NCBI GenBank assembly: GCA_964525635.1
Contig: CAZGJX010000064.1
Coordinates: 1 to 25,315 of the forward strand
From: an uncultured archaeon
Lineage (GTDB): Archaea; Asgardarchaeota; Lokiarchaeia; Sigyniarchaeales; SOKP01
Direction of reading: 5' to 3'
Length of the DNA: 25,315 bases
The translations under genes were made by a program, and so were the position numbers. The notes beneath the pieces are model-generated. The model was not told the origin of the DNA and made no database searches. It saw nothing but the letters and a program-made list of their open reading frames with translations. Positions within the stretch are counted from its first letter, which is position 1. Each line of letters opens with the position of its first letter. Positions 5,686-20,059 of the stretch are shown piece after piece.

Positions 5686-5889
5686 AATTAATCATTTCTA
5701 TTTTATATAATAATTATAATGCACTAATTTTATTTAAAAAATTAGCTGAAAAAAATATATTTGTCTTATATATATTAATAAAATAACCTTGGGATAATAT
5801 AAAATTTAAGTATAAACTAAAACAAAAAGAATAATAAAAATAATGGCTTTTTCTTTATGTTCAAAAAATAGATAAATTATTTATAATGA

Positions 5890-6327
5890 TTAAAGGAATA
5901 ATACTACAAAATTACTACCTTTTGTATATTCTCCACTTACTCTATCTTTAACCCATATTTTTCCCTTAACTATATTAATTATTTTTTTTACTAATGATAA
6001 TCCTATTCCCATTCTCATTGTTCCTTTATTTTTTCTTTCGAAAATATTAATTTTTTGAGAATCCTCAATTCCTATTCCATTATCAATGAATTCTATCTTT
6101 ATATACCTTTTATCATTAATTCTTTCTTTAGTTAGATCTATACTGATTTCTATATTTTGGTTAACATTATAGCTTACTGAATTAAATAAAAGATTTTTAA
6201 ATACATATAGTAAAAGGCTATTTGCTTAAACTTTTAATTTCTTATAATTTTGCCTAAAATTTTGATGAATCTTGAATTTTTTATCTTTTTTATAAATTTT
6301 TTTTTTCACAGATTTTATATCTAAATA
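5890..6327 (-). pseudogene. Histidine-kinase ATPase (HATPase_c) relic
   Basis: Hand translation of 6225-5890 gives ANSLLLYVFKNLLFNSVSYN...IEFIDNGIGIEDSQKINIFER...RMGIGLSLVKKIINIVKGKIWVKDRVSGEYTKGSNFVVLFL*. There is an in-frame TAA at 6226-6228 (KLKV*ANSLL), and no H-box or sensor domain. Confidence 0.88.
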
Positions 6328-10610: not shown

Positions 10611-10976
10611 AGATTTATCATCATTTGAAAATGCTAAATTAAATTTGATAAATTAATAAAAATTGTACATATATATAAGATTGATCCATTAAAAAAAACC
10701 AACTAATTATGTTCATTTTTATAATTTATCCATTTTTAAAAAAATATATTAAAGATACCATTTAATATATTCAATTTATAACCAACTGTAGTTCCTTTTC
10801 TTTATTATAAATTAAAATCTTAAATTTAGAAGATTTTAAACCATCTTTTTTGTAATTGCTTAATAAGTCATTTTTATTTCTTGATTTTAATTTTTATTTC
10901 TATTTCAAAAAATACATTATGTTCATAAACAGAAATAATTTAATTTAGAAATTTTTATAATTAATTGAAGATCAAA

Positions 10977-11264
10977 ATGAGTAAAGATGATAAAATAAGT
11001 CAGGCATGGGAAGCATATGAAAAAATCAAAAGTGCGCTCGACGGATTATATGAAATTTTAAATATGAGTTTTGATAATGATAATATTTTTTATCAATGTG
11101 GAGTAGATAATTTAGAAGAATTAAAAGAAACAATAATTGATATTCTCACTCATGAGTATAATAATATAGAAATAAAAGAAAGATTAAGAGAACTTGAGTT
11201 TGATGTAAAAAAGCGTCTTTTTTTTGAAGGAAAACAAAATAAAGGAAAAAATAATAAAATTTAA
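10977..11264 (+). CDS. Small acidic all-helical hypothetical protein
   Basis: ATG at 10977 (MSKDDKISQAWEAYEKIKSALDGLYEIL...). Amphipathic helical pattern; no recognised motif. Confidence 0.6.
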   Translation: MSKDDKISQAWEAYEKIKSALDGLYEILNMSFDNDNIFYQCGVDNLEELKETIIDILTHEYNNIEIKERLRELEFDVKKRLFFEGKQNKGKNNKI

Positions 11265-11328
11265 AAAAAATCTTAATTCATTTAAAGGTTTCTGAAATTG
11301 AAATTTTACTCTTGTTAAAGTTAAGAAT

Positions 11329-11560
11329 CTAAAAAGAAAAATAATTTATGTATTCCTTTTTTGAACGAGATTTAATAGGTTTTAAAACTACATAAACTCT
11401 TTCAACACTTTTTACTTCATTTCTTGCTTGGAATAATTCAATTTAAGCGTCAAGTTCATTAATATCAACCAGTGTAACTTTAATTAAAACCCCACATTGT
11501 CCAGCCAGAAAATAAACTTCCTCACATTTTGGTACAACTTAAGTTTCTCTTAATAATATA
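11329..11560 (-). pseudogene. Lrp/AsnC-family regulator relic (ligand-binding RAM domain)
   Basis: Hand translation gives LLRET*VVPKCEEVYFLAGQCGVLIKVTLVDINELDA*IELFQARNEVKSVERVYVVLKPIKSRSKKEYINYFSF*. It matches the RAM pattern P.v.evy..tG..d..ikv...d..eL. In-frame TAA at 11539-11541 and 11443-11445; HTH not recoverable. Confidence 0.8.
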
Positions 11561-11792
11561 TATATTATAAATGAATTATTACTTCATAAAAGTGGTAAAA
11601 TCTGCAAAATATACATTTTTTTTTACATTTTTTCTATCTATCGGATTTTTTTTAACGCCTTATTATAACGTTCAATAAAAAATAATTAGAAAAATTATAA
11701 AAAATTGGAATATTAATATTTATTAATTATTATATTCAATATTTTAATATAAAAAATAGTCTTATTCTCTATTCTGCGAAGGTATAAAAATC

Positions 11793-12464
11793 ATGAAAAT
11801 ATTAATAACTGGACCTGTTCAATGTGGTAAATCAAGTTTTATTCAATCTTTTGATCCAAATGCACTTAATATACAAGCAAAAGGAGCAGATGATAAATTT
11901 TATACAGTAGGAATGGATTTAGGATCAATAATTATTAATGGTTTTCGTGTTTATCTATTTGGAACTCCTGGGCTCACACGGTTCTCTATAATAAGGGAAA
12001 TACTATCGGGAGGTTCTGAGGGATTAGTTTTTATTTTTGATTCAAGTAATCCAGAAAAAGATGCTGAAGCTATTGAGATGTTAAATGCAATTAAAAAGAA
12101 TCTAGGGGATGACTTACCAATTGTATATTTGGCGAACAAACAAGATTTAGAGAATGCTAGATCACCTGAAGAGATCATAAGTCAAAATAATTTGCCTGAT
12201 AATATTAAAATCTTTCCAACAAGTACAATAACAGGATTAAATCTAAAAAAATCATTAAAATTTATATTTGGAAAAATATATGAAAAATATCGAGATCTTA
12301 TAGAAATTCTTAAGTCTTATGAAAACGATATTAAAGGTCTTGCCGAAAAATTAAATAAAGATAAAATTGAGATGAAAGATTTCTTAAATAAATTAGAAAT
12401 CAGAAAACTTATTGAAATAGACAGAATGAATAAAACCTACAAAGTCAAAAATGTTATAAAATAA
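11793..12464 (+). CDS. Small Ras-superfamily GTPase (MglA/CvnD/Arf-related) with C-terminal winged-helix-like extension
   Basis: G1 GPVQCGKSS, G2 YTVGMDLG, G3 LFGTPGLTRF, G4 NKQD, G5 TSTITG. About 60 extra residues (IKGLAEKLNKDKIEMKDFLNKLEIRKLIEIDRMNKTYKV) have an HTH-plus-wing pattern. Confidence 0.88.
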   Translation: MKILITGPVQCGKSSFIQSFDPNALNIQAKGADDKFYTVGMDLGSIIINGFRVYLFGTPGLTRFSIIREILSGGSEGLVFIFDSSNPEKDAEAIEMLNAIKKNLGDDLPIVYLANKQDLENARSPEEIISQNNLPDNIKIFPTSTITGLNLKKSLKFIFGKIYEKYRDLIEILKSYENDIKGLAEKLNKDKIEMKDFLNKLEIRKLIEIDRMNKTYKVKNVIK

Positions 12465-12598
12465 TTATTTTCTTTTTAAATATCATAAATTAAGTCTTTT
12501 TCTTTCAATTTCTTAAATATATAAGGAGCATAAATTTATATTTCAAAATATTTTTTAGATTTTTAAATATATCAAATGTTTTTCTTAAAGTGAAAACC

Positions 12599-14254
12599 AT
12601 GTTTAGAAGAAATTTCAATAAATTTTTAAAAAATCCCCCAGTAGAACCAGAATTATATCCATATCTTTACTCTATTAACTTTAAGAAGCTTTCAGAGGCA
12701 AAGGAAAAAATTAATATTGAGCCAATACAATGTAGTCAATGTGGAGCCATTCTGACAAATCTTAAAGATATTAAAGATGATCCAAATATAGGAATATATT
12801 ATGAATGTATATATTGTGGAACAATTAATATGGTCAGTAAAGAAGGACTTCCGGATTCTTTAGAAAATGATTTAGACTTCATAATTGAAGATATAAAACC
12901 AAAAAAATTAAAAGATGAAAAGATCACAGGAACAGGAGCAATAGAAAGTGATTTATACATTTCGGTAATTGATATTTCAGGAAGCATGAGAGGTGCTAAA
13001 ATAGAAGCTGTGAAAAGTTCACTTATTCAAACCTTAAATGATTTTAAAATTAATGCTCCTTTAACTAAATACATCCTTATTGCATTTGAGAGTATAGTAT
13101 ATTATTATTTAAGGTCTGACGAAAAACCAATTCATTTTAAAGGAAATACCTTATTTTCTTTAGAGTCAATGAAATTTGAACTAAAGAAACAAGTTAATAA
13201 AAATGATTTTTTAGGTTCTCTTGGTGAATTTGCAGATGGATGGATTGCTGTTGTAAAAAATCTTCGTGATAAGAATATGACCGCATTAGGTCCTGCTCTT
13301 TATCTTGCTATTACATCATTTGAGATTTTTGGTTTTTCCGCAGGAAGAATTACATTATTAACTGATGGGCTTGCAAATCAAGGAGTTGGAAATCTTTCAG
13401 GCACAAATATAGGAGCAGACCGATTATATGAGGATTTAGCTGATATATGTAATATAAATAACCTTATAGTTGATATTGTAGGTGTTTCAGCACCTGGAGA
13501 TAACAATGAAATGGGACTTCAAACCTTAGGAAAGATAACAGATAGTACTGGTGGAATGCTTTATATGATTTCTAGCGAGGAAATGGAGGTTATATTTTCA
13601 GAATTAAGAAAAATTAACTATATTGGAAAAGATGTAATGATTAAAATTATAACACCTAAGAATCTTTCAATTAAAAATATTACGGGAGCTTTTAGCTCTA
13701 AAGCTGTAAATGGCTCAGAAGTAAAGCTAGGAGTAGTAACTGATAATCGAGAATTATTTGTTGAATTTGACGGAAATAAAATAAAAGATGCCAAAATGGA
13801 TAAAATTCCAATACAACTTCAAGTAGCTTACAAAGATTTAGAAGGACGTAAGAGAATTAGAGTTATAAGTGACCAAGTGAAGATAACTGAAGATGAAAGA
13901 GATTTTAAATCAAATTATGATCAAAAACTAAATGCAATGATGAATATTCAAAAATCTGGAGCAGAATATTATAAAGGAGATATAAATGGGTCTAAAAAAA
14001 GATTAAATTCTTTAAAACAAAATATAGCAAAGGAGTTAGGTGTCTTAAATAAAGAAAATATAGCATTTAAAAAAAAAAGCTTTTCAGAAGGAATCAATTT
14101 TTTAGATGATGAATTGGATGAAATGGCACAGGAATCAAAACAAATGCAAAAAGCTCCTGTTAAAAGTTTTATGGCAGTAGCAGGACAAGCAAGATTAAGA
14201 TCTTCTCAAGAAGATATATTAAAAAGGCTAGCAAAAAAGAAAAAGCAAAAATAG
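12599..14254 (+). CDS. Sec23/Sec24-like protein: Zn finger, vWA trunk, beta-sandwich, partial helical domain (also resembles the non-Ras part of CPRas1)
   Basis: PIQCSQCGAIL...YECIYCGTIN zinc finger; VIDISGSM, TALGPAL and LLTDGLANQGVG vWA motifs; STGG; PIQLQVAYKDLEGRKRIRVIS beta-sandwich; YDQ helical start. ATG at 12599, alternative GTG at 12590. Confidence 0.82.
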   Translation: MFRRNFNKFLKNPPVEPELYPYLYSINFKKLSEAKEKINIEPIQCSQCGAILTNLKDIKDDPNIGIYYECIYCGTINMVSKEGLPDSLENDLDFIIEDIKPKKLKDEKITGTGAIESDLYISVIDISGSMRGAKIEAVKSSLIQTLNDFKINAPLTKYILIAFESIVYYYLRSDEKPIHFKGNTLFSLESMKFELKKQVNKNDFLGSLGEFADGWIAVVKNLRDKNMTALGPALYLAITSFEIFGFSAGRITLLTDGLANQGVGNLSGTNIGADRLYEDLADICNINNLIVDIVGVSAPGDNNEMGLQTLGKITDSTGGMLYMISSEEMEVIFSELRKINYIGKDVMIKIITPKNLSIKNITGAFSSKAVNGSEVKLGVVTDNRELFVEFDGNKIKDAKMDKIPIQLQVAYKDLEGRKRIRVISDQVKITEDERDFKSNYDQKLNAMMNIQKSGAEYYKGDINGSKKRLNSLKQNIAKELGVLNKENIAFKKKSFSEGINFLDDELDEMAQESKQMQKAPVKSFMAVAGQARLRSSQEDILKRLAKKKKQK

Positions 14255-14352
14255 ATAATAATTTTATCTAAAAGTTATTTATTTTTTAATTGTAATTCTA
14301 AATTAACAATAAAAATAAATTTAAAAAAAAAAGATTTTTATTTAAAAATCTC

Positions 14353-14859
14353 TTATTTAATCTGAACTTTTGGTTTGATTGGAGAGGCTCCACCCATATT
14401 GGTAATAATTGGACAGTGTGTGAAAACTTTATCCATTAACTCATTAATTTTCTCCTCAGAAGCATCTGCCTTAATCCTTACAACAGGTTCAAGCTTATCA
14501 TACCCAGCTAATTTAGAATCATCTATTCCAAAGATAGCTCCAAGATTAATATGTCCACGGGAAAAAACTTTTAATTCCTCAATTTTTATATCCATAATTA
14601 TTGCCCAAAACTTTGTTACGGCAATTATGCATGCACCAATGGAAGATAAGATTACTAATAAGGGTGATGGTCCTTTATTTGTACCACCTAATCCTCCTGG
14701 AGCGTCAATTAATAATTTAAATGGGTCTCCTGCGGGATTCCCCATTGTACACTCCACTTGCATACCTTCTGGTAACATTTCGCATTCAATATTAAAATTC
14801 TTCTCTCCTGCATTCCAATCTGCTTTAATATTTTCGTATGTTTCTTTAAAACTTGGCAT
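14353..14859 (-). CDS. OsmC/Ohr-family protein
   Basis: IDAPGGLGGTNKGPSP, IGAC and HCPI supply the two conserved cysteines. Confidence 0.88.
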   Translation of the reverse strand: MPSFKETYENIKADWNAGEKNFNIECEMLPEGMQVECTMGNPAGDPFKLLIDAPGGLGGTNKGPSPLLVILSSIGACIIAVTKFWAIIMDIKIEELKVFSRGHINLGAIFGIDDSKLAGYDKLEPVVRIKADASEEKINELMDKVFTHCPIITNMGGASPIKPKVQIK

Positions 14860-14990
14860 AACAATCTCATTATTTTAAGTAATTTATTATTAATTAATTG
14901 AATAAATATCCATTTTAATTTAGTATCTATTCAATATAAATATAATGAAAAAAGAGGTATTAATACTAATTTAAAAATAACTAAAGGATT

Positions 14991-15113
14991 CTAATTTGCA
15001 AAATTTATTAATTCTTCCAATTCTAAATATCTTTTCTTAATAGACGTTTTTCTATACTCTCTCAACATATCCCATTGTTTCCTACTAACTATTAGATCTT
15101 GTCTTTTTTTCAT
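14991..15113 (-). CDS. Putative 40-aa basic microprotein (not in ORF track)
   Basis: MKKRQDLIVSRKQWDMLREYRKTSIKKRYLELEELINFAN*, preceded by a strong SD-like AAGGGTGA at 15122-15129. Confidence 0.55.
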   Translation of the reverse strand: MKKRQDLIVSRKQWDMLREYRKTSIKKRYLELEELINFAN

Positions 15114-15162
15114 TTTTTAATTCACCCTTATATTGTTAATTAATATACAATCTACACTATTA

Positions 15163-15196
15163 ATAAAATAATTTAGACTGATTTTTTACAATTAAA
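15163..15196 (+). repeat. Direct repeat copy 1 (34 bp, 17-bp identical core TAATTTAGACTGATTTT at 15169-15185)
   Basis: Matches 17400-17433 with 4 mismatches. Confidence 0.6.
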
Positions 15197-15321
15197 AATT
15201 TCATTAAAAATAAAAAATCCTTATTTTTTATCATCAAGTATTTTTTTATATTTTTTTGAGGTATGATCTCTATAAGAATTATCATAAAACAAAAATTATC
15301 AGAAAAAAATCCAATAAAAAA

Positions 15322-16062
15322 TTAGCGTAAATTAAGAATTAGAACTATTGTACCGATTCCGGCTAATATTAATAGAATTTGCCTAACACTTGCAATCGCA
15401 CTCGATCTATTATGTAAACCAGGTGTTAAATCCGATAATGCAATATAAAGGAAGCTAGCTGCAGAAATAGCTAAAAATAATGGTATTATAGAATTTACTT
15501 TCTCTAATATATAATAACCCATAATAGCAGCTGGTATTGTTGTTAAACTAGATGAAAGATTATATAAAAATGCCTTTTTTTTTGAATATCCACTATCTAG
15601 TAATATTGCAAAATCACCTACTTCCTGAGGTATTTCATGTGCAATAACTGAAAGACCTACAACTATACCGGTTTGAATAGAGATCAAAAAACCAGCAGCA
15701 ATAACAACTCCATCAATAAAATTATGAACTGCATCTCCTATAAGTAATATTGTTCCTGCCGTTCCATGAACTTTACAATCTTTATGATGACAATGACGCC
15801 AAATTATCGTTTTTTCAAGAAGAAAAAACAATACAATTCCACCTAAGACAAATGATAATATTTTGATTGGATCACTTTTTGATATGGCTTGTGCTATCAT
15901 TCCTAGCAATGCTGCAGCAAGAAGGGTTCCTGTTGCATAGGAAATTAAACAAGGGATAAGTTTTTTTTGTGTCTCTTCTTTAATTTTTAGAAAAATACTC
16001 GCTGTAATTATCGCTCCCACACTCCCTAAAATACTAAATAAAACAATTAAAACTATAAGCAT
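15322..16062 (-). CDS. ZIP-family divalent metal (Zn/Fe) transporter
   Basis: His-rich loop WRHCHHKDCKVH, TM4 DAVHNFIDG, TM5 HEIPQEVGDF, SFLYIALSDL. Likely ATG at 16062 with GATGTGA upstream (ORF track uses TTG at 16098). Confidence 0.92.
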   Translation of the reverse strand: MLIVLIVLFSILGSVGAIITASIFLKIKEETQKKLIPCLISYATGTLLAAALLGMIAQAISKSDPIKILSFVLGGIVLFFLLEKTIIWRHCHHKDCKVHGTAGTILLIGDAVHNFIDGVVIAAGFLISIQTGIVVGLSVIAHEIPQEVGDFAILLDSGYSKKKAFLYNLSSSLTTIPAAIMGYYILEKVNSIIPLFLAISAASFLYIALSDLTPGLHNRSSAIASVRQILLILAGIGTIVLILNLR

Positions 16063-17574: not shown

Positions 17575-19485
17575 TTATTTTTCAAATTCAAAAGGAGAAA
17601 TATCCTCCTTCCCAAACTCAACTTTTAATGTTCTAAGACTGTTTCGTTTTTGATTTAAGATATTCCAAAAGAATTGAGGTGTAGTCTCTTCTTTTTGATA
17701 CATTTTTTCGATCCTATCAAGCTTTTCTAATAATCCATTAGTTCGAATCGTGAATTGTTTCTCGTAATCTTCTTTTGAATAGTCTTTATCAAGGTATTCT
17801 CTGAAAAGTGTTTGTAAGTCTTGGTGTGTCGGAATAAAACCAATAGGAGTTTCAATTGCATCAACTTCATTATTAGCTCGTAATTCTGACCACATAACCC
17901 AGATAAGTTTATCCAACATACCATTTAGATATTTTCCATTTTTATCTTTTAGGAAGTAATTTGTAGCAAAAATCTTTGGTGGGTGTTCCAAACTTTCCCC
18001 GAACTTCTTATGGTTTTTAAGATATGTTCCTAATGGTACAACAACAAAATCCAAGTTTGCCATTGGACTTGCTTTTCTGACTCCCTCCTGTCCAAGAGTT
18101 GCGGAAGTCGTTTCGGACTCTAAGGATGCTCCGAAAAAAACACCATTTACCCAATCTAAGCTTTCAACTATTGGTGGCATTGTATCACTATCTCTACCAC
18201 CATAGAAAATTATTTTTACTGGAACTCCATCAGGATTGTGTAGGTTCTCATCAGCATTGCCTAATTCCTCAATCCGGATAGTATAGCGAGCATTAGGGTG
18301 AGCATGGGGAATATATCTACCATTTCCATCCTTTTTTCCTTTAGTCCAATTTCCTGAAAAATTGAGACCCCCTTCAGGAATTTCTCTTCCGTCTCCAATC
18401 CAATATGGTGTATCATCCTTTACTAGAACATTTGAAAAAATTGTTTCTCTTGGTGTTGTTATAGCATTCCAAATGACCGGATCATCATCAGGATTCACAT
18501 CCTTTATAATACCGAATATACCCTGCTCGATATTAACCGCATGAGCATATCCATCTTCCCAAGGCCGTAAATAGGCAATATCATCACCGACGATAGTTTG
18601 TCCCGGTAACATCGCAGTACTTGTTTTTCCACAAGCACTTGGATATCCACCACATGCGTAGGATACTCGATCTTTTCCTTTTGGATGAAGGGTCATTAAG
18701 AAATAATGCTCGGCTAACCAATCTTCTTTATTAGATTTATCAATTGCTAATCTAAGAGCGAGCTTCTTTAAGCCCAGCGAGTTCCCAGCATAGGTATTAT
18801 TTATAGAAAGTACACGGCTCTCTTGTAAATCTACGTAGATTCTACGTTTATCGAGATTCTTTGTCACAGGGGGTTTTCCCATCAATTCTCCAGATGAATG
18901 TACGAAATAAAAGAATTTATTAGAACCATTTAATTTTTTAAATTCTTCATAACCTGATCTATAAAGAATATCTTCAGAATGACAAACATATAAACTATCA
19001 GTAAGTTGAAGTGCGAGTAGTGAAAATTTGGAGTTTTTTGGACCTAAACAAAAGAATCTAACAATGCATTCATGATCTTTCATGCATCCATCCATGATAT
19101 CTAATATTTCTGAGAGTCCTTTTTCTCTTTCAATTGTATTAATCCAAGGACTTGCATATTCTCCTTCTGGAACCAAAACACGAGTATTAGATTTATCTCT
19201 TGCCTGATCATGATTTCCCATATTAATAAATGCATCATAATGGACAGTATGTCCTTCCAATTCAAGTTTAGATTCTTCCCCAAGTTCTATAGCCTTATAT
19301 CTTACATAATCAATATCTTCTTTTAGATCACTTATGACAGTTACTTTACTAGGTTTACATAAGGCAAGAAATTCATTGATTATCTTCAAAACATGTTGGT
19401 TATCTAATGCCTCCAATTTACGAATGCTTTCTTCATCAATTATATTCATTTCTAATATATCCTTAAGATAATTTTTAGAATCCAT
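17575..19485 (-). CDS. pckG: Phosphoenolpyruvate carboxykinase (GTP)
   Basis: YAGNSLGLKKLALR, WLAEH, PSACGKTSTAM, VGDDIAY, HPNARY, YGGRD. Likely ATG at 19485 after GGAGAAGG (ORF track uses TTG at 19533). Confidence 0.96.
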   Translation of the reverse strand: MDSKNYLKDILEMNIIDEESIRKLEALDNQHVLKIINEFLALCKPSKVTVISDLKEDIDYVRYKAIELGEESKLELEGHTVHYDAFINMGNHDQARDKSNTRVLVPEGEYASPWINTIEREKGLSEILDIMDGCMKDHECIVRFFCLGPKNSKFSLLALQLTDSLYVCHSEDILYRSGYEEFKKLNGSNKFFYFVHSSGELMGKPPVTKNLDKRRIYVDLQESRVLSINNTYAGNSLGLKKLALRLAIDKSNKEDWLAEHYFLMTLHPKGKDRVSYACGGYPSACGKTSTAMLPGQTIVGDDIAYLRPWEDGYAHAVNIEQGIFGIIKDVNPDDDPVIWNAITTPRETIFSNVLVKDDTPYWIGDGREIPEGGLNFSGNWTKGKKDGNGRYIPHAHPNARYTIRIEELGNADENLHNPDGVPVKIIFYGGRDSDTMPPIVESLDWVNGVFFGASLESETTSATLGQEGVRKASPMANLDFVVVPLGTYLKNHKKFGESLEHPPKIFATNYFLKDKNGKYLNGMLDKLIWVMWSELRANNEVDAIETPIGFIPTHQDLQTLFREYLDKDYSKEDYEKQFTIRTNGLLEKLDRIEKMYQKEETTPQFFWNILNQKRNSLRTLKVEFGKEDISPFEFEK

Positions 19486-20059
19486 ATTCCTTCTCCATAT
19501 TGATATTAAAACACTTTTTATTTTTTTTAACAAGATTAATGAATTTATTCATTTAAAGTTGGGGTTTATTGAAAATATTTTAGAATAATTAAAGATACTT
19601 CGCAAATTTTTAATATTTATAATGATATTATTTAAAATTTATGCCGAGAATTGAAATTTTTTTAGATATTATTTTACTTTTATCAGTTAAGAATGAGAAA
19701 GAAAGAGTTAAGGGGTTTTACTGATAAAACAATTAAGATATATGAAAATTTTTATTAGAATATATCACTTTAATAGAGTAGCAATAGAAAATCTCCTGAG
19801 ATTCTTTTGCATTATTCATTGTAAATATTCGGTTGATAGTATATTTGCTAAGAATGGGAACTTCAATAATTATGTCAATAGGGATAAATGATTCAAACTG
19901 AAAAATATAGAATAATATATATAAAAGATTAGATTAGGATTATTTTTATAACCATTTACAATAAATCTGGCATTTATTCAATTATCTCCTTTATTATAAA
20001 TAAGGCTTTTTTTTTCACTATAAATTTATCAAGATGAGGATGAGTGGAATAAAATTCAG

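Follow-up and report, generated by a model that had tools for sequence, protein, structure and literature searches.

How the coat protein complex II (COPII) and GTPase-controlled membrane coats arose is an open question in eukaryogenesis. Homologues of Sec23/24 are known in Asgard archaea, where they carry every Sec23 domain but gelsolin and are patchily distributed among genomes; they lack the Sar1-contact residues, bind Asgard Arf weakly and independently of the nucleotide, and came without a GTPase partner (PMC11914678). In eukaryotes, the circularly permuted Ras protein cpRAS-VWA (CPRas1) carries a Ras-like domain in one polypeptide with a zinc finger of four Cys and with a vWA/Sec23 trunk (PMC2430557). 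In Sulfolobus, ArnA and ArnB form a regulatory complex controlled by phosphorylation, as opposed to a coat, which the depositors of the structure describe as an archaeal Sec23/24-core orthologue and in which ArnB's MIDAS (metal ion-dependent adhesion site) is occupied (PMC12852372). Here we examine a stretch of 25,315 nucleotides from an uncultured archaeon of the Lokiarchaeia (contig CAZGJX010000064.1; the window is this whole stretch), in which a small GTPase gene (gene 1) is directly followed by a gene for a Sec23/24-like protein (Sec23L, gene 2). A conserved GTPase-Sec23L pair would have provided the missing GTPase partner, and the first-pass annotation of the window proposed such a pair, either as a proto-COPII module or as an unfused counterpart of CPRas1, whose architecture it gave in agreement with the published description. 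The picture obtained from related genomes is different: the pair in the window is probably an incidental juxtaposition, because the two genes differ in their distribution and their adjacency is restricted to this genome. We consider it fairly likely that they are two independent genes made neighbours by relocation or acquisition in the lineage of the window genome.

The search for both proteins covered 150 genomes from one order, that of the window genome, among them 131 sampled genomes of its family; these are samples, and a gene not found in the searched set is not for that reason absent. The GTPase is conserved across the family, a single full-length orthologue being present in 115 of the 131 genomes, whereas Sec23L occurs in 21 (~16%). 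All three congeners of the window genome (89-99% complete) keep the GTPase and Sec23L was detected in none of them (0/3). Among the 21 Sec23L genomes, 17 possess the GTPase, which is no more than its overall rate and reveals no preferential co-occurrence. In the 19 other genomes carrying both genes, they are never adjacent (0/19) but lie on different contigs or far apart. In a set of 31 Asgard Sec23L loci with flanks of up to 6 kb, tblastn found no GTPase orthologue within ~6 kb of Sec23L (0/31). The first-pass annotation had read the two genes as a GTPase-effector pair and had named the lack of conserved adjacency in related genomes first among the findings that would refute it; this is what the synteny analysis returned. 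The domain make-up and fold of the proteins, their genome distribution and this non-conserved adjacency are what the analysis shows.

The surroundings of the GTPase are informative in this respect. Its 3′ end abuts that of the phosphoenolpyruvate carboxykinase (PEPCK) gene, tail-to-tail, in more than 20 family genomes (loci L085-L108), and this is its native position. In the congener G046, the order Eco57I, PAS kinase, MTHFR, TM501, GTPase, OsmC, PEPCK, DUF998, TrmB is that of the window, but the locus is devoid of Sec23L, ZIP, thioredoxin and Fer4 genes, and the stops of the GTPase and OsmC genes are 43 bp apart. By parsimony, Sec23L was inserted here in the window genome's own lineage, the OsmC-like gene marking the far edge of the insertion. 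We found no terminal repeat or other mobile-element signature around it (11200-15400), only low-complexity AT-rich matches, and the GC content of Sec23L (0.29 versus 0.27-0.35 for its neighbours) gives no sign of foreign origin. Upstream, the region 5′ of the GTPase varies between genomes and contains no conserved partner gene.

Further side observations concern this region. The GTP-dependent PEPCK gene of the window lies at 17575-19533. The interval between the GTPase and PEPCK genes holds inserts in the window's genus, OsmC and, here, also Sec23L, ZIP, thioredoxin and an Fer4 protein, and looks like an insertion hot spot. A 99-aa open reading frame (ORF) located 5′ of the GTPase (10965-11264), which has no family match, has a homologue 81% identical in one congener (L080) and another, 38% identical, 2.7 kb upstream of Sec23L in G150 (L008:2013-2252).

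Several points nevertheless weigh against a purely incidental neighbourhood. The two genes are co-oriented and 134 bp apart, and only ~1.2% of the other genes of the window genome have a same-strand GTPase within 300 bp upstream (2.2% within 1.5 kb). In other lineages, Sec23L is found near other small GTPases, one of them Rab-like, another a second Rab-like paralogue, with Roadblock, and one contig carries an Arf/Gtr1-like gene 2.7 kb upstream. In addition, the promoter and terminator signals that can be read in the spacer are weak readings and no proof in a genome of 25% GC. These points have to be set against the chance background. The window genome contains 97 GTPase-domain ORFs, and ~8.2% of its genes have one within 1.5 kb. 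The arrangement seen in the window is uncommon, yet chance alone would produce it for a few dozen genes in each genome.

The first-pass annotation placed the two ORFs correctly, and its description of the spacer as T-rich with TATA-like stretches also stands. The start of Sec23L had to be moved, since the family alignment supports ATG 12599 and not GTG 12590. The spacer displays T-runs TTATTTTCTTTTT immediately 3′ of the GTPase stop (12466-12477), a TATA-like stretch TTTTTAAATATAT (12560-12572) and a GTGA element 6-9 nt upstream of the Sec23L ATG. Similar T/A-rich blocks and a GTGAAA-like element precede the ATG of other Sec23L genes in unrelated contexts. Sec23L is probably transcribed from its own promoter, apart from the GTPase, because in several other lineages it stands alone between genes of the opposite strand (L002, L014-L017).

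If the pair were a proto-COPII module, a Sar1-like switch with its dedicated Sec23-like effector or GTPase-activating protein (GAP), or the unfused halves of a cpRAS, both proteins should carry the corresponding features. The same strand, the 134-bp spacer, the Sec23/24 fold of gene 2 and the eukaryotic fusion of a Ras-like domain to vWA are in its favor. Apart from the restriction of the adjacency to the window genome, by which this proposal is largely refuted, gene 1 does not fit. Its product is indeed a member of the Ras superfamily, exceeding the Pfam cut-offs for Arf (35.3 bits) and for Ras (33.4 bits) and matching NCBIfam small_GTP (43.5 bits). The complete G1-G5 set announced for it holds only in part. 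Motifs G1 (GPVQCGKS, residues 7-14), G2 (T38) and G4 (NKQD, 115-118) are normal, but G3 reads FGTPGL and is non-canonical: F56, G57, T58, P59, G60 and L61 do not vary among the 14 aligned orthologues (41-100% identity); Thr stands where Walker B has its Asp, and the catalytic Gln has given way to Leu. A Thr at the G3 Asp position is a MglA-like trait. Moreover, the model begins at strand beta-1, in line with the earlier remark that the Sar1 N-terminal amphipathic helix is missing. Neither this Arf/Sar1-type helix nor a WDxGGQ-type G3, with the catalytic Gln of DxGGQ, is found in this neighbour of Sec23L, as would be expected of an Arf-family protein or a Sar1/Arf-type partner.

Among PDB sequences, the best match of gene 1 is the Asgard HodArfR1 (8ouk, E 1e-15), followed by Rab, Arl8 and MglA with ~50 bits each. 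Its fold is that of a Ras-superfamily domain without special traits, and with the Arf family it shares only this fold and a general relationship. The feature that sets it apart is an extra domain at the C-terminus. In the AlphaFold model (predicted local distance difference test, pLDDT, 91), residues ~176-219 form three helices and a hairpin of winged-helix type, with helices at 180-187 and 191-203 ahead of a beta hairpin that spans 207-218. The same region gives weak matches to helix-turn-helix profiles (Csa3, E 3.6e-4; HVO_A0114, E 0.05). Because Leu replaces the catalytic Gln, GTP hydrolysis would be slow or would need outside help. We suppose that gene 1 encodes a stand-alone nucleotide-dependent regulator whose output would pass through the winged helix, by DNA or protein binding.

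The gene 2 product, in contrast to what a generic vWA annotation would suggest, is a genuine Sec23/24 homologue, and the annotation was right on this point. Encoded by a single copy in the window genome, it matches Sec23_trunk (PF04811, 37.8 bits for a cut-off of 27) and Sec23_BS (PF08033, 36.7 bits for a cut-off of 33.5), and generic VWA models of Pfam remain below their cut-offs. With a profile of 16 homologues (34-100% identity), the best PDB sequences are Sec24A/C/D and yeast Sec24 (E 2e-10). The AlphaFold model (pLDDT 83; predicted template modelling score, pTM, 0.84) retrieves exclusively Sec23/Sec24 among its top 46 Foldseek matches, with E down to 7e-30 and TM scores of 0.67-0.69. In VIA-align, residues 1-551 cover human Sec23A 16-639 (Z 26.7, 497 residues) and also yeast Sec23 11-645. 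Most alignments with bacterial relatives display ~21-30% identity and cover parts of the trunk and sandwich.

The domain order proposed for gene 2, zinc finger, vWA trunk, beta-sandwich and helical domain, is borne out by Pfam, invariant residues and the fold. Pfam zf-Sec23_Sec24 does not match Sec23L, but the four zinc-finger cysteines are invariant in the 16 homologues and the region is included in the Sec23 fold alignment. All MIDAS residues listed in Table 1 are likewise invariant in these homologues; with its complete DxSxS...T...D pattern the trunk is of the MIDAS type, with a predicted metal site. The C-terminal tail (14180-14254, residues ~528-551) contains a conserved GQxRxRxS motif, in which R534 is invariant and S536 is conserved in at least 90% of sequences, followed by poly-Lys. 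This basic tail could, speculatively, be a regulatory, phosphorylation or membrane-contact site. The N-terminal MFxRxFxKFL was considered as a membrane-binding amphipathic helix and dropped, since the model shows beta strands of the barrel there.

The gelsolin domain is absent from Sec23L: nothing follows the helical domain and the alignment stops at about residue 640 of the 765-768 of Sec23. The residue on which GAP catalysis by Sec23 mainly depends lies in this domain. Because it is missing, Sec23L cannot activate a GTPase in the manner of Sec23, and the Sar1-Sec23-like activation put forward earlier falls. With trunk and beta-sandwich, zinc finger and helical domain and no gelsolin, Sec23L is a further member of the published Asgard Sec23/24-like family. 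The reading as an unfused CPRas is not better served: the G motifs of gene 1 follow the canonical order, unlike the cpRAS permutation, the genes are separate, and a weak search for longer homologues found none with a GTPase fused to Sec23L. A complex prediction with Sec23L, GTPase residues 1-165, GTP and Mg gave a score of 0.00, which, obtained without controls, speaks neither for nor against binding. Taken together, we regard a proto-COPII module or split cpRAS as very improbable, and, being non-conserved, the pair of the window is no example to quote for a proto-COPII module.

As for what Sec23L would do, MIDAS-bearing vWA domains generally hold on to a partner by one of its acidic or phosphorylated residues. 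Because its MIDAS and zinc finger are invariant, we suppose that Sec23L is a soluble metal-dependent protein-binding adaptor of the Sec23/24-ArnB type, whose MIDAS metal probably binds such a residue on a partner protein.

Table 1. Features of the locus and of related Sec23L neighbourhoods (window coordinates unless a locus is named)
Feature	Position	Strand	Basis
Small Ras-superfamily GTPase with C-terminal winged helix (gene 1), 223 aa	11793..12464	+	Pfam, NCBIfam, family orthologues, AlphaFold model
Atypical G3/switch II motif LFGTPGL, GTPase residues 55-61	11955..11975	+	alignment of 14 orthologues
Winged-helix-like C-terminal domain of GTPase, residues ~176-219	12318..12449	+	AlphaFold model and weak HMM matches
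AT-rich spacer, 134 bp	12465..12598	+	sequence reading
Asgard Sec23/24-like protein (Sec23L, gene 2), 551 aa	12599..14254	+	Pfam, AlphaFold model, Foldseek, VIA-align
CxxC...CxxC zinc finger of Sec23L (C45, C48, C70, C73)	12731..12817	+	invariant Cys, fold alignment
vWA trunk of Sec23L with complete MIDAS (D125-I-S127-G-S129, T228, D256)	12953..13609	+	Pfam Sec23_trunk
Beta-sandwich of Sec23L, including QVAY..GRKRIRV	13619..13888	+	Pfam Sec23_BS; model strands 341-430
Helical C-terminal domain and basic tail of Sec23L	13895..14248	+	model: five helices, residues 433-550
OsmC-like gene, far edge of the insertion, directly beside GTPase in congeners	14353..14859	-	Pfam OsmC
Rab-like/Sec23L neighbourhoods	L131:3232-7318; L132; L133:3263-6048; L134:1916-6124; L125:1668-7154; L135:2031-5659		

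The window DNA is AT-rich (~25% GC) and its closest relatives are Asgard archaea (Promethearchaeota, Lokiarchaeota, Thor-, Hermod- and Hodarchaeota). Sec23L neighbourhoods in other lineages raise the question of a more general link with GTPases. In the metagenome contigs L125 and L131-L135, Sec23L is transcribed divergently from a Rab-like GTPase gene (175-184 aa), sometimes with Fer4 between them, and in most of these contigs a gene for a Roadblock/LC7 protein (128-140 aa) lies downstream of Sec23L. A DUF362 gene precedes Roadblock in L131 and L132, which are near-duplicates, and L135 has neither DUF362 nor Roadblock. One of the Roadblock members scores above the Pfam cut-off. Between distinct contexts, the divergently oriented Rab-like GTPases are 51-64% identical and the Roadblock proteins 31-44%. 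The Sec23L copies themselves are 54-73% identical and scattered over the Sec23L tree, where deep support is weak and the window Sec23L groups with one of them as its sister at low support (0.57). Because the copies sharing it are divergent and scattered in this way, the ancestral layout of the family was probably this one, with the Rab-like GTPase gene pointing away from Sec23L-(DUF362)-Roadblock.

The window genome itself keeps a locus of this type without Sec23L. Contig C114 opens with DUF362 and the Rab-like gene (G000 C114:1212-1763), and contig C19 closes with Roadblock (G000 C19:45076-45465) and the remaining end of DUF362. The DUF362 gene is split over the two contig ends (G000 C19:46934-47215 and C114:29-991); because one gene spans both, C19 and C114 are probably adjacent. 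A trace of Sec23L is left in G078, a close relative of the L131 source (flanking proteins 87-93% identical). Its Rab-like/DUF362/Roadblock locus retains only a 41-codon C-terminal Sec23L remnant (E 4e-11), at 4809-4931 of L138 (G078:C27), between the Rab-like GTPase and DUF362 and 68% identical to residues 508-548 of L131. From its sequence, we read this remnant as a deletion scar left by a recent Sec23L loss. In G027, the equivalent locus has no Sec23L and no detectable remnant. Its patchy distribution, the remnant in G078 and the loci without it make Sec23L a volatile accessory gene, with repeated losses and occasional relocations.

A second clade, with Sec23L at least 74% identical, shows another arrangement: a different Rab-like paralogue is found upstream, co-oriented and 0.8-1.3 kb away, in a block comprising a 426-aa protein, a CPBP protease, the Rab-like gene, an AhpC-like protein and Sec23L. 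This block, too, persists in the window genome without Sec23L.

These neighbourhoods could mean that Asgard Sec23-like proteins serve small-GTPase switches as accessory effectors or scaffolds, and that the relocated Sec23L now works with, or under, the upstream GTPase-winged-helix protein. The two Rab-like arrangements, one of them shared by rather divergent Sec23L copies and often accompanied by Roadblock, point in this direction, as does the cpRAS fusion of a Ras-like domain with a zinc finger and vWA/Sec23 trunk (PMC2430557). A search with a hidden Markov model (HMM) built from the window genome's own GTPases places a small GTPase within 1.5 kb of Sec23L in ~3 of 12 distinct contexts, for a background of 8%. 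However, this excess is marginal (nominal p ~0.02-0.1), with criteria that are partly post hoc and contexts that are not cleanly independent. No GTPase is nearby in at least seven other contexts (L002, L008, L011, L117, L128, L129, L130, L136 and all the distant Asgard lineages), and one apparent match, the 686-aa neighbour in L115 flagged by the HMM, is the iron transporter FeoB and was removed from the tally. Furthermore, both Rab-like neighbourhoods persist without Sec23L (G078, G027 and the window genome), and synteny equally deep exists without evident function, as for the GTPase-PEPCK pair. We therefore hold such a general link to be unlikely, though conceivable.

A more specific version appears rather improbable. 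Sec23L would be an optional effector or scaffold of GTPase/Roadblock switches, derived from an ancestral Rab-like-Sec23L-(DUF362)-Roadblock unit, and would have moved in the window lineage behind the winged-helix GTPase, possibly its new switch. If this were true, what the published binding tests lacked would be these native neighbours as partners, and a pre-COPII link between GTPase and coat would become directly testable. In any case, the candidate partners of Sec23L come from other lineages, namely the Rab-like GTPase and the Roadblock/LC7 protein. For the window itself, we retain as the probable reading the chance neighbourhood of two independent genes.

Two recurrent features were observed beside Sec23L genes. 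A conserved GC-rich hairpin (e.g. CCTCGCAAGGG ... GGGAT) followed by a T-run is present 5′ of Sec23L (~5881-5925) in L001, L004, L006, L007, L010 and L012, where it sits 3′ of an AhpC/TSA-like gene; it may be an archaeal selenocysteine insertion sequence (SECIS) element plus terminator. Genes for Rce1-like/CPBP proteases recur near Sec23L and Rab-like genes (L004:3426-4067; L133:7691-8425; L136:5873-6715; P0040 contig). Eukaryotic Rce1 processes prenylated small GTPases; as CPBP genes are common, this recurrence may be a coincidence.

Compared with known systems, gene 1 resembles MglA and ArfR by its Ras-superfamily fold, and MglA is among its top fold matches (26% identity). It differs from both in the Leu at the catalytic Gln position, the fused winged helix and the lack of the Arf-type N-terminal helix, and no Roadblock/MglB gene adjoins it in the window, unlike in the MglA/MglB system. 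The cpRAS proteins have the permuted order G3-G4-G5-G1-G2 and are fused, whereas here the order is canonical and the genes are separate, non-conserved neighbours.

Sec23L shares with COPII Sec23/Sec24 the domain order and the fold (Z 24-27 over ~500 residues). It lacks gelsolin, it is encoded by one gene per genome instead of a Sec23/Sec24 pair, and the GTPase beside it is not Sar1/Arf-like. The MIDAS positions of human Sec24A read DVSHN / S / Q-T-Q and are degenerate, while those of Sec23L are intact, which argues for a ligand-binding adaptor function that would have been lost in Sec24A at the aligned positions. The nearest archaeal fold relative is ArnA/ArnB of Sulfolobus (8s05; Z 23.7, root-mean-square deviation 3.8, 360 residues). 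Like Sec23L, ArnB combines a MIDAS vWA domain, a beta-sandwich and a C-terminal helical bundle, and works with a zinc-finger module. In ArnAB, however, the zinc finger is borne by a separate FHA protein, ArnA, whereas in Sec23L it is fused in cis, and the window has no linked gene for an FHA protein or a kinase. The closest likeness is with the Asgard Sec23/24-like proteins, in domain arrangement, absence of gelsolin, Foldseek matches to eukaryotic Sec23 and patchiness; the window protein shows no essential difference from them (PMC11914678). Our analysis puts the emphasis on the intact MIDAS, the RxRxS/poly-Lys tail, the volatility of the gene and its changing neighbours.

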